NCBI GenBank assembly: GCA_016124845.1
Contig: WGMW01000013.1
Location: 46,064 to 110,063 of the forward strand
Origin: Flavobacteriales bacterium
GTDB taxonomy: Bacteria > Bacteroidota > Bacteroidia > UBA10329
Direction of reading: 5' to 3'
Length of the DNA: 64,000 nucleotides
Shown: one piece after another, positions 25,192-28,458 of the stretch
How positions within the stretch are numbered: the stretch's first letter is position 1
Layout: each line of letters begins with the position of its first letter
The notes under the pieces: generated by a model
Seen by the model: only the letters and a program-made list of their open reading frames with translations
Databases searched by the model: none
What the model was told of the DNA's origin: nothing
Position numbers and translations under genes: made by a program

Positions 25192-25941
25192 ATGTCCAAG
25201 ATCTTTTGGCCGTTCAAAATGCTGTGGAGAGGATGGTTCTTCGTGAGCTGCTTCCTCACGCTGATGCCGTTGTTTCCGTTCTTCTACTATTTCGTTCACA
25301 ACGAAAAGCACTTCAAAAAGGCCATGTTCCTGAAGCGTATCTGGGCACGCATGATCTGTTTCGTGACGGGTGTTTGGAGCACCGTGGAGGTGGAAGAACC
25401 GCTCGTAGATGGCCCGTACATCATCGTTCCCAACCATGTTTCGTTTGTGGATATCGTGCAATCGTACATCGCATTTCCCATCTATTTCCATTACATGGGA
25501 AAGGTACAATTGGGCAAATGGTGGTTCTTCAACATTTTCTTCCACAAGATGAATATCCTGATCGATCGCACGAACCTGCGGGCTTCTTACAACTCGTATC
25601 AGCGCGCGGCCGATGACCTTAAAAAAGGCATTTCCATTGGCGTTTATCCCGAATCGATCATTCCCGATAATCCTCCGAAGATGCTGCCCTTCAAGAACTC
25701 ACCGTTCAAGATCGCCATCGAAGCACAAGTTCCCGTTGTTCCCGTTACTTTTGTGGGCGGCTGGAAAATTCTGCCCGCCAAACCACACGTGTGGGAAGGC
25801 GGTAGACCTGGAGGAACGTTCATCAAAATTCACCGTCCGATTCCTACAAAAGGAATGACCGTGAAAGATGTGGACAGCCTGCGGGACAAGGCACAGGATG
25901 TGATCCGACAAGAACTGAAACGACATGGATATAACGGATAA
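25192..25941 (+). CDS. plsC: 1-acyl-sn-glycerol-3-phosphate acyltransferase (lysophospholipid acyltransferase)
   Basis: HX4D motif (VPNHVSFVDI), N-terminal TM, PlsC-like size. Confidence 0.8.
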   Translation: MSKIFWPFKMLWRGWFFVSCFLTLMPLFPFFYYFVHNEKHFKKAMFLKRIWARMICFVTGVWSTVEVEEPLVDGPYIIVPNHVSFVDIVQSYIAFPIYFHYMGKVQLGKWWFFNIFFHKMNILIDRTNLRASYNSYQRAADDLKKGISIGVYPESIIPDNPPKMLPFKNSPFKIAIEAQVPVVPVTFVGGWKILPAKPHVWEGGRPGGTFIKIHRPIPTKGMTVKDVDSLRDKAQDVIRQELKRHGYNG

Positions 25942-26227
25942 AACGGTTGATGAGCTGGCGCACTTGGCGCGATTGCAGTTTGAAGGCGAGGAAAAAGAGC
26001 GCATCAAGAAGGATCTGAACAAGATCCTCACCTTCATGGAAAAGCTGAATGAGCTTGATACCGATGGCGTGGAACCGCTCATTTACATGTCGGAAGAACT
26101 GAACGTGATGCGCAAGGACGAGAAGAAACAGACCATCACACAAAAGCAAGCACTCAAAAACGCTCCGAAAGCCGATTCAGATTACTTCAAGGTTCCGAAG
26201 GTTCTAAAGAATCCAGATGCTGAATAG
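25925..26227 (+). CDS. gatC: Asp-tRNA(Asn)/Glu-tRNA(Gln) amidotransferase subunit C
   Basis: 100 aa, MDITDKTVDELAHLARLQFEGEEKERIKKDLNKIL... typical GatC. Its last about 55 nt are repeated at 28398..28452. Confidence 0.85.
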   Translation: MDITDKTVDELAHLARLQFEGEEKERIKKDLNKILTFMEKLNELDTDGVEPLIYMSEELNVMRKDEKKQTITQKQALKNAPKADSDYFKVPKVLKNPDAE

Positions 26228-26346
26228 CTCGGATTCGCTTTCGTTCAGAGAAATAATGTTGAAAACGTTTCTTACAAACGGCTGAACGTTTGAAGAAACC
26301 ATCTATTTTTGATAACCATGTTTAAGGTTGCATAACTTGGTTATCC

Positions 26347-27612
26347 ATGAAAGAGTATTATAGCATTTCGGAAGTAGCCGACCTTCTGGGCAAGAGCAAG
26401 GAGACGCTGAGACGTTGGGACAACAACGGAAAGTTGACCGCAGTGCGCGAACCGATGAGCAACTATCGGGTTTACCACAAAGATCAGCTGCGCATTTTCG
26501 ATGAGTTGGCGTTTCTGTTCAATGAGGCTGAAACACAGGACGCGGTCAAAGCAAAACTTGATTATTCGGTTTTAGAATTGTTTGCAGGTGCCGGTGGGCT
26601 TGCCATCGGTCTGGAACAGTCAGGACTGAAATGTGTAGGACTCAACGAGATCGATCATTGGGCAGCTGAAACGCTGAGAAGGAACCGCCCGAACTGGAAC
26701 GTGATGGAAGGGGATGTCCGCAATATGGATTTCTCCGAATTTGAAGGAAAAGTTGATGTGGTCACAGGCGGATTTCCGTGTCAGGCGTTCAGCTACGCTG
26801 GGAAAAAGCTGGGGCTGAAAGACGCTCGCGGAACGCTCTTCTACGAATTTGCGCGCGTGGTACAGCAGACCAGGCCACTGATCTGCATGGGCGAAAATGT
26901 CCGTGGGCTTCTGAACCATGATGGTGGTAGAACGCTTGAAGGTCTGCGCTCCATTTTGGACGAGATCGGGTATCGGGTTCTGGAGCCGAAAATTCTCAAG
27001 GCAATTTTTTATAATGTTCCTCAAAAAAGAGAGCGTTTGATCTTGATCGGCATCAGAAAGGACGTTGATGTCGATTTCCTTTTTCCGAAACCATACAAAA
27101 AGATCTACACCGTAAAGGACGCCCTGAAGGCCGGAGAACTTTACGCCACCGATGTGCCGAAATCTGCTGGTTCCAAATACCCCGAACACAAGAAGAAGGT
27201 CTTAGATCTGGTTCCTCCAGGAGGTTATTGGCGCGACCTTCCAATTGACCTCCAAAAGGAGTATATGCAGAAGAGCTTTTATCTCGGAGGAGGTAAAACA
27301 GGGATGGCACGTAGGATAAGTTGGGATGAACCAAGCCTTACCCTAACATGCAGTCCAGCGCAGAAGCAAACGGAAAGATGCCATCCTGATGAAACCAGGC
27401 CATTTACCGTTAGAGAGTACGCGCGGATACAGACATTTCCGGATGATTGGAAATTTGCGGGCGCTGTTTCACAACAGTACAAACAGATCGGCAATGCCGT
27501 TCCGTGCAACCTTGCCAAAGAGCTCGGTTTTTCATTGGTCCGGTTTCTGAATAGTGCTTATTCTTCCAAGCTCATTGATGCCAGAACACAAAAGACCGTT
27601 GTAAGTGGATGA
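26347..27612 (+). CDS. DNA (cytosine-5)-methyltransferase with N-terminal HTH regulatory domain (type II R-M modification subunit)
   Basis: C5-MTase motifs I (FAGAGGLAIG), IV (GGFPCQAFS), VI (ENVRGL), X (QIGNAVP). First about 55 aa (MKEYYSISEVADLLGKSKETLRRWDNNGKL...) form a MerR/excisionase-like HTH, as in autoregulating M.SsoII/M.MspI-type enzymes. Confidence 0.9.
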   Translation: MKEYYSISEVADLLGKSKETLRRWDNNGKLTAVREPMSNYRVYHKDQLRIFDELAFLFNEAETQDAVKAKLDYSVLELFAGAGGLAIGLEQSGLKCVGLNEIDHWAAETLRRNRPNWNVMEGDVRNMDFSEFEGKVDVVTGGFPCQAFSYAGKKLGLKDARGTLFYEFARVVQQTRPLICMGENVRGLLNHDGGRTLEGLRSILDEIGYRVLEPKILKAIFYNVPQKRERLILIGIRKDVDVDFLFPKPYKKIYTVKDALKAGELYATDVPKSAGSKYPEHKKKVLDLVPPGGYWRDLPIDLQKEYMQKSFYLGGGKTGMARRISWDEPSLTLTCSPAQKQTERCHPDETRPFTVREYARIQTFPDDWKFAGAVSQQYKQIGNAVPCNLAKELGFSLVRFLNSAYSSKLIDARTQKTVVSG

Positions 27613-27647
27613 TGTGACATTGCTTACTTTCACCGTTCATAAACAGC

Positions 27648-28379
27648 TTGAACGGAATGGCAAAACTCAATTGGATCTCTGACGGGAATCTGAACGCAGC
27701 AGTTTCTCACCTGCTTGAAAAGGCGAAAGCTGCAAAATCAGCAGCTGAAAAGGAGTTTGGAAAGAATGTCATAGACCCGTTCTCAGCACTTTTCGAGATT
27801 GCCGCATTCGAATTGAATTATGACGATTGGAAGAAAAGTGAAACCGCGCGTCAGGCACAGAAAACGCTTCAGAATCACGTTGGGGAATTTCATCAACGAA
27901 TATTGGGAAGCGTTGACGGTTGGGAGAACTTGGAAGTTGGAAACGAGGTTGATCTTGCAAATCACAACCGGAAGATCATTGCCGAGATAAAGAACAAGTA
28001 CAATACCATGAAAGGCAGCGACAAGTCTGGTCTTTACCACACGCTCGATGACCTGACAATGAGGAAGTCAAGTAAATTCCGCGGCTATACTGCTTACTAC
28101 GTTACAATTATTCCAAACAGGAAGGCCAAGTTCAATAAGTTGTTTACGCCTTCTGATAAGAGTAAAGGAGCGAAGTGTCCTCCCAATGAATTGATCAGAG
28201 AAATTGATGGGGCAAGTTTTTATGATCTGGCAACTGGTGTCACCAACTCATTGAAAGAACTTTTCGAGGTGTTACCTTCTGTTGTGTCCGAAGTGAGTGA
28301 AGGAAAACTATCCGTTTCTAAAGAAGAGGTGCAACAGTTTTTTGCCGCTGCGTACGGAGTGCTGGAGAAACCAAGATGA
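27648..28379 (+). CDS. type II restriction endonuclease (PD-(D/E)XK fold), cognate to upstream MTase
   Basis: 243 aa directly downstream of MTase. GNEVDL...IIAEIKNK matches the D...(D/E)xK nuclease motif. Sizes (421/243 aa) are reminiscent of Eco47II/Sau96I-type systems, but specificity cannot be established. Confidence 0.65.
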   Translation: MNGMAKLNWISDGNLNAAVSHLLEKAKAAKSAAEKEFGKNVIDPFSALFEIAAFELNYDDWKKSETARQAQKTLQNHVGEFHQRILGSVDGWENLEVGNEVDLANHNRKIIAEIKNKYNTMKGSDKSGLYHTLDDLTMRKSSKFRGYTAYYVTIIPNRKAKFNKLFTPSDKSKGAKCPPNELIREIDGASFYDLATGVTNSLKELFEVLPSVVSEVSEGKLSVSKEEVQQFFAAAYGVLEKPR

Positions 28380-28397: not shown

Positions 28398-28452
28398 CCG
28401 ATTCCGATTACTCAAAGCTCCACATGTTCTTAAGAATCCTGATGCTGAATAA
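28398..28452 (+). repeat. degenerate direct repeat of gatC 3' end (remnant KAPHVLKNPDAE* coding segment)
   Basis: Aligns to 26172..26227 with about 80% identity (one 1-nt indel). Immediately followed by the start of the next gene, as expected for the original gatC end. Confidence 0.8.
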
Positions 28453-28458
28453 CTATAT

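Follow-up and report, generated by a model that had tools for sequence, protein, structure and literature searches.

The window, by which we mean the whole 64-kb stretch of Bacteroidota DNA analyzed here, carries a restriction-modification (R-M) cassette behind the chromosomal gene gatC, laid out as follows.

25925-26227, forward strand: gatC, a chromosomal gene with the cassette inserted directly behind it (Pfam GatC, E=2.4e-24).
26228-26346: leader of 119 nt between gatC and the methyltransferase gene.
26347-27612, forward strand: gene (M) for a helix-turn-helix (HTH)-fused C5 cytosine methyltransferase (MTase) of 421 aa (Pfam, AlphaFold2 model, invariant HTH residues).
27657-28379, forward strand: gene (R) for an Eco47II-family restriction endonuclease, 44 nt after M (Pfam RE_Eco47II, E=1e-55).
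28398-28454, forward strand: degenerate second copy of the gatC 3' end, 81-85% identical to 26172-26229, marking the right edge of the cassette.

Because the last 57 nt of gatC recur at this identity directly after R, the 2.2-kb M-R unit is an insertion at the gatC end. M and R are the sole genes between 26228 and 28397, so that the cassette is without a separate C-protein gene, as had been claimed from the sequence alone. One related cassette (L206) likewise lies after gatC but has no duplication scar, and another (L207-L209) sits after a NifU gene.

The specificity of the cassette is probably of the GGNCC type, as indicated indirectly by the families of the partner endonucleases and by the depletion of GGNCC in the surrounding DNA. 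The endonucleases that accompany relatives of the methyltransferase include the Eco47II, EcoO109I, TdeIII, and SinI families, which cut GGNCC-type sites. The partner belongs to the Eco47II family in 42 loci (9 tandem, 33 convergent), to the EcoO109I family in 24, and to the TdeIII family in 3, and is DpnII-like in 1; gene order among the relatives is tandem or convergent, with R convergent in most. Within the 64-kb window GGNCC occurs 123 times against 227 expected under a third-order Markov model (ratio 0.54), and the depletion is alike for all four central bases, as would fit a long history of exposure to a restriction system specific for GGNCC.

The catalytic domain of the M product spans aa 74-395 (Pfam DNA_methylase, E=1.8e-80) and its GGFPCQ motif is invariant. 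The N-terminal domain matches MerR-type Pfam models only, with MerR (PF00376), MerR_1 (PF13411), and HTH_17 all above their curated cut-offs at aa 4-60, so that the MerR-type HTH on a C5-MTase that the sequence-only reading had described is real. In the full-length AlphaFold2 model the order beta-alpha-alpha-beta-beta-alpha-alpha is followed by coil and then by the MTase fold, giving the protein two features ahead of its catalytic domain.

aa 4-57 (nt 26356-26517), forward strand: winged HTH (Pfam and AlphaFold2).
aa 58-73: linker, a coil of about 16 residues (AlphaFold2).

The MerR dimerization helix is absent from this model, in which a helix at residues 52-57 gives way to the coil linker and then to the MTase domain. 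The nearest solved sequences to the HTH are MerR-like regulators, the N-domains of CarA/CarH, BldC, and phage Xis, through PDB matches that are weak but consistent (3qao, 2jml, 4ua1, 6amk/6ama, 5c8d, and 4j2n; E 0.01-1). Invariance, or something close to it, is seen in the recognition helix E19-T-L-R-R-W-D25, at G28, and at the wing residues A32, R34, P36, Y40, R41, and Y43. At E<=1e-20 the methyltransferase matches more than 8000 database proteins, and the best 120 of these are 74-100% identical to it, nearly all with the same HTH and MTase architecture. A search of a representative library with the HTH only returned mostly short gene fragments and multi-HTH proteins; two proteins in that library, P0121 (623 aa) and P0122 (1015 aa), carry 8-10 tandem copies of the HTH domain.

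Operator palindromes had been proposed in the leader, namely a perfect 8-bp inverted repeat overlapping the ribosome-binding site (RBS) and start, and two copies of AACGTTT. The repeat lies exactly where it had been placed, with GATAACCA (26311-26318) and TGGTTATC (26338-26345) separated by 19 nt, but a single base separates its end from the ATG at 26347, and this Bacteroidota genome offers no Shine-Dalgarno RBS for it to overlap. Taken alone the repeat is unremarkable, given that perfect 8-bp inverted repeats whose arms stand <=40 nt apart turn up in 6.8% of leader shuffles and in 36 of 537 nonoverlapping 119-nt windows across the 64 kb; its core is rescued by comparison with relatives, being the local version of a TAACCA/TGGTTA pair that is conserved family-wide. 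The AACGTTT copies fared differently. The first, AAACGTTT, is at 26263-26270 as described, while the second is at 26285-26291 and not, one base off, at 26286-26292, and only the AACGTT part of the motif is palindromic. Two AACGTT in the 119-nt leader do constitute a local enrichment (0.043 expected per 119 nt), and the copies form the two arms of a separate hairpin between the gatC stop and the cassette promoter.

26267-26299, forward strand: 13-bp bulged hairpin GTTTCTT(A)CAAACG / CGTTTGAAGAAAC with a 6-nt loop, then a T-run (RNA fold of the leader).

Neither the copies nor the hairpin are conserved in the two closest cassettes, L206 and L207 (89% protein identity). AACGTTT was rejected as an operator on these grounds, the copies being hairpin arms that are absent from the closest cassettes and from an alignment of 81 leaders. 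The hairpin, which is specific to the window, is possibly a terminator or insulator for gatC.

The aligned set consists of the window and 80 genomic loci from Flavobacteriales, Cytophagales, Sphingobacteriales, Bacteroidales, Saprospirales, and Calditrichaceae, whose MTases are 69-82% identical; 158 leaders were examined in all. A single conserved block stands upstream of the HTH-MTase gene in 81 of 81 leaders, and also in the four closest metagenomic cassettes. In the window it has the following parts.

26304-26343, forward strand: whole conserved candidate promoter/operator block of 40 nt, about -12 to +28 (81 aligned leaders).
26304-26311, forward strand: sigma-A type -7 box TATTTTTG, consensus TAnnTTTG, the sole perfect TAnnTTTG inside the cassette.
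26313-26318, forward strand: site E1, TAACCA, about -3 to +3, with 1.9-2.0 bits per position; exact in 79/81 leaders.
26323-26329, forward strand: site E2, TAAGGTT, with 0.9-2.0 bits in the 81-leader alignment.
26333-26343, forward strand: conserved TAA and site E3, TGGTTA (26338-26343), with 1.1-2.0 bits; TGGTTA exact in 67/81 leaders.

Across the family the block reads tatATTTG-TAACCA-(a/t)TGTaTAAGGTT-gtgTAAyaTGGTTA, a pattern of TAnnTTTG followed by TAACCA-N6/7-AAGGTT-N8/9-TGGTTA, in which the TA and TTTG of the -7 box are near-invariant. E1 and E3 are the left-arm and right-arm cores of the 8-bp repeat, and both arms are exact in 65/81 leaders, with spacers of 19 or 20 nt. The GGTT of E2 starts 12 nt after the AACC of E1 in the window (12 or 13 nt across the family), and the GGTT of E3 follows that of E2 by 13 nt in 73/81 leaders, the window included, so that the array consists of three GGTT-containing sites, one inverted and the other two direct, spaced by about 13 bp. 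What had been read as a simple palindrome at the RBS therefore keeps its TAACCA/TGGTTA core, but belongs to a tripartite element joined to a sigma-A -7 box. An E. coli-type promoter scan of the leader gave no match; this type of scan does not apply to Bacteroidota, a phylum in which promoters and translation signals are unlike those of model organisms. The Flavobacterium sigma-A box spans -12 to -5 (PMC9723704), which would place the transcription start near 26316, inside TAACCA, with a 5' UTR of 31 nt, a typical length; the putative operator would then cover roughly -3 to +28, or nearly the whole 5' UTR.

That leaders of such cassettes resemble one another could be a passive consequence of recent horizontal transfer, with the 8-bp repeat in the window arising by chance. 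The cassettes are clearly mobile, with differing insertion sites, and the repeat alone is not significant, but this explanation is refuted by the neutral-site control and we hold it to be very improbable. Mean pairwise identity is 81.5% within the block, 35.9% in the 40 nt upstream (random expectation 33%), and 31.1% at the four-fold degenerate sites shared within codons 1-57; synonymous positions, like the upstream DNA, are thus saturated. Core positions of the block hold 1.5-2.0 bits, compared to 0.1-0.25 bits at four-fold sites, and conservation sets in abruptly at the -7 box, with an information content of 0.1-0.7 bits upstream of it in the 81-leader alignment. Since the block was kept while neutral positions became saturated, it is under strong purifying selection and is not hitch-hiking on recent transfer.

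The block is also specific to its gene. A metagenome scan that started from the motif and was blind to the gene matched at least 120 stretches, 80 of which were read: 77 have an open reading frame (ORF) with the HTH, 2 run off the contig end, and 1 is an apparent chance match. Accordingly, 77 of the 78 informative matches are followed within 0-41 nt by a same-strand ORF with this HTH, and among the 80 stretches read the MTase domain is also visible in 69 and the ETLRRWD helix in 77. The full tripartite pattern has one match in the 64-kb window against 0 expected, and a scan of 1.07 Mb of related loci found only one good site per locus. The HTH-MTase is the only gene that always accompanies the element; the R partner varies and vsr is optional. 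More distant homologs lack the element. The MerR-HTH MTases of Vibrio, Psychrobacter, Bacteroides thetaiotaomicron plasmids, and Treponema, which are 34-58% identical and have other helix and wing residues, show no element at their loci even under relaxed matching. Nor was it found at an ortholog from a Clostridium perfringens plasmid (L211, 802-2121), which bears a different N-terminal HTH, Xre-type by eye, or at one from a Lactococcus garvieae plasmid (L212, 1117-2226), which is without any HTH. As the element is missing where the HTH differs or is absent, it co-occurs with one particular reading head. The comparisons thus show a real element that is strongly constrained by purifying selection, belongs to this HTH clade alone, and is tied to a promoter. 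At one locus (L149, 2715-3306) a decayed cassette has an intact element, a 92-aa HTH-only ORF, and a truncated EcoO109I-like endonuclease gene.

The restriction of the element to one HTH clade bears on whether the block might instead be read by host machinery, as an extended promoter or initial-transcribed region or as the site of a Bacteroidota host factor, serving expression in many hosts. The block is joined to a near-perfect -7 box, and the cassettes occur in many Bacteroidota classes and in Calditrichota, where portable expression signals would be selectable. Against this, no TAACCA or GGTT motif follows the other TAnnTTTG boxes of the window, the sites at +8 to +28 lie beyond the normal promoter contacts of RNA polymerase, and orthologs whose HTH is different or missing, one of them plasmid-borne in Bacteroides, manage without the block, which has been seen only with the one HTH clade. 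We therefore regard a host reader as unlikely.

Action of the block in the mRNA, either as a 5'-UTR hairpin (TAACCA/UGGUUA) masking the start region or as a leader peptide tuning translation, is a further explanation and one that we judge quite unlikely. The window hairpin folds at -12 kcal/mol, and in most loci the right arm abuts or includes the start codon; yet the fold has a z of -1.3 and is equaled by 22 of 200 shuffles, and with the -7 box placing the start near 26316 (box at -12 to -5, PMC9723704) the left arm would lie mostly outside the transcript. RNAalifold found no pairs, and hence no consensus structure, across the 81 sequences, Rfam gave no match, and single-sequence z scores were -1.3 and -2.1, so that a conserved RNA structure was rejected. 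A candidate leader peptide is present in the window (AUG-UUU-AAG-GUU-GCA-UAA), and 50/81 leaders have an ATG with an in-frame TAA 4-6 codons on. It was likewise rejected, given that an ATG is present in only 56/81 leaders and missing in 25/81 and that invariant third and varying second positions are not codon-like. The element moreover keeps with the promoter and not with the start codon: six loci have about 50-230 nt inserted between it and the ATG, and there it is still joined to the -7 box.

The inserts in three Saprospiraceae loci (L013, 2793-3000; L023, 2785-3000; L026, 2768-3000), about 200 nt long and lying before the methyltransferase start, are MITE-like, with inverted repeats of about 27 bp at their ends (CACGTGGTGGTCTGCTTTAGCTGACCT), and site E3 is degenerate in these loci (GGGGTA). 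A methylation-sensitive promoter of the CfrBI kind was also considered and rejected: none of the 81 leaders contains GGNCC, which excludes control by promoter methylation.

We consider it probable, from the arrangement and conservation of the sequence, that the leader holds a promoter and an operator that is bound by the HTH of the methyltransferase itself, which would thereby repress its own transcription. In this mechanism the leader would serve as the cassette's own promoter, with the tripartite operator joined to the -7 box TATTTTTG. The N-terminal winged helix of MerR/HTH_17 type, held on its linker of about 16 residues, would bind the TAACCA, TAAGGTT, and TGGTTA sites, and accumulated enzyme would block the binding or escape of RNA polymerase, resulting in negative autoregulation. 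We infer that the HTH is the binder and repression the effect, as we do the start near 26316 and the co-transcription of M and R. The arms and the HTH are both invariant, and base-by-residue covariation is therefore unreadable; the bases next to the two arms (G/A versus C/T) showed no association with each other, and compensatory change there was rejected as a signal. The sites are spaced at 12/13 and 13 bp, their arms stand about 2.5 turns apart, and the E1-E2 distance varies by 1 nt. Such spacing and the 1-nt E1-E2 indel do not fit classical dimer operators.

Whether the endonuclease is subject to the same feedback would depend on gene order. No perfect TAnnTTTG box precedes R in the window, including the last 200 nt of M, and none precedes it in 11 tandem relatives, which have weak near-matches only; an internal R promoter was accordingly rejected. 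No terminator-like site was found in the M-R gap of the window. Lacking its own -7 box and standing 44 nt after M, R is probably co-transcribed and co-limited with M, and with the two genes in tandem and no recognizable promoter between them one feedback would cap both M and the Eco47II-like endonuclease. In relatives with a convergent R only M would be controlled, so that the coupling of M and R expression proposed by the sequence-only reading could hold at best in tandem cassettes like that of the window, as R is convergent in most relatives. If R is co-transcribed with M, simple autorepression alone leaves the delayed expression of R in a new host unexplained. The three closest cassettes share GCTTACWTTCA...GAACGGA in the M-R spacer (window, 27613-27656; L206, 1868-1909; L207, 4267-4308), which might be a weak internal promoter or a signal for translation of R.

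To our knowledge, detailed accounts of R-M genes controlled by their own methyltransferase are limited to a few enzymes from enterobacteria and lactococci. HTH-fused C5-MTases of this kind repress their own promoters through a site other than the methylation site (PMC3978073, PMC2760811, PMC3874152): M.Ecl18kI/M.SsoII does so by steric exclusion at the M promoter, and autoregulation is likewise known for M.EcoRII, M.MspI, and M.ScrFIA (PMC2760811, PMC3978073, PMC3874152). The methyltransferase described here looks functionally like these enzymes, and with M.SsoII/M.Ecl18kI it shares the layout of a C5-MTase preceded by a flexibly linked HTH domain of about 55-70 residues, and also a regulatory DNA site, here a candidate one, at its own promoter and distinct from the methylation site. 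The likeness to the SsoII/MspI type drawn by the sequence-only reading nevertheless has limits. The SsoII regulatory domain is a predicted HTH like those of Xre-family C proteins and other regulators (PMC3978073), in contrast to the MerR/HTH_17-type winged helix found here, so that the HTH-fused architecture is analogous and not the same. The suggested comparison with SsoII operators bears out a candidate site at the own promoter but little of its form: a single quasi-palindrome of 15 bp between divergent R and M genes makes up the SsoII operator, which indirectly activates R, whereas the element here is tripartite, spans 31 bp, is joined to a Bacteroidota -7 box, and serves genes that are tandem or convergent. 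Specificity differs as well (CCNGG for SsoII/Ecl18kI, predicted GGNCC type here). The methyltransferase is therefore not of the SsoII family, as HTH type, operator form, and gene order all differ. M.EcoRII, M.MspI, M.ScrFIA, and M1.LlaJI repress only their own genes and leave R unaffected (PMC3978073), which is the M-only autoregulation to be expected for the convergent-R majority here, but their N-terminal regions and operators are unrelated to those of our cassettes, and the literature searched reports none of them as MerR-type.

Closer parallels for the reading head lie outside R-M systems. BldC, phage Xis, and the CarA/CarH N-domains have the same fold order, beta-alpha-alpha-wing-alpha-alpha, and no canonical dimerization helix, and BldC and CarH bind arrays of several repeats and not a single palindrome; the domain here differs in being fused to an enzyme, and its sequence matches to these proteins are weak (E 0.01-1). 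With MerR regulators it shares the N-terminal winged HTH, but the long coiled-coil dimerization helix and the effector domain are absent, and where the MerR operator is a palindrome in an over-long promoter spacer that permits activation by DNA distortion, the element here overlaps and follows the -7 box, from -3 to +28. In C-protein systems (PvuII, AhdI, Esp1396I) a dedicated HTH protein reads an operator at the R-M promoter, timing and limiting expression, whereas here there are no C gene and no C-boxes, and the putative regulator is part of the methyltransferase. Eco47II/Sau96I-type GGNCC systems likewise have an Eco47II-family endonuclease adjoining a C5-MTase. The literature searched gave no description of a MerR-type HTH-MTase fusion, of its operator, or of regulation in Eco47II/Sau96I systems.

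Retention of the block almost unchanged in more than 150 cassettes suggests that the HTH-MTase likely shuts off its own gene. The control principle is already known and no conceptual surprise; what sets these cassettes apart from the known cases is the MerR-type head and the tripartite element. A more specific proposal, which in our estimate stands about evenly balanced, is that a monomeric BldC/Xis-like MerR winged helix, as part of a GGNCC methyltransferase, forms an assembly over three GGTT sites (one inverted, two direct) spaced by about 13 bp, and that this array, laid over the transcription start and the whole 5' UTR, is an undescribed self-contained promoter-operator-repressor module of thousands of Bacteroidota R-M cassettes, with heads and operators swapped as modules in R-M evolution. 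The same core with another HTH in Clostridium and with none in Lactococcus would make heads and operators such swapped modules, and suggests that regulatory HTH heads have been exchanged on one GGNCC-type catalytic core. The cassettes would thus illustrate how regulatory HTH heads can be exchanged as modules while the catalytic scaffold stays the same. They also provide, in Bacteroidota, a natural collection of great size, with more than 8000 database proteins, in which the candidate operator is single and sharply delimited, a directly testable candidate operator/repressor pair, and possibly a compact autoregulated promoter for genetics in this phylum.

A further gene may fall under the same promoter region in some relatives. 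Nineteen of the loci L001-L080 (e.g., L001, L006, and L016) carry a divergent vsr gene for a very-short-patch repair endonuclease, which starts 26-66 nt upstream of the methyltransferase -7 box. At this distance the vsr promoter must overlap the promoter/operator region of M, and vsr might be co-regulated with M through this overlap.
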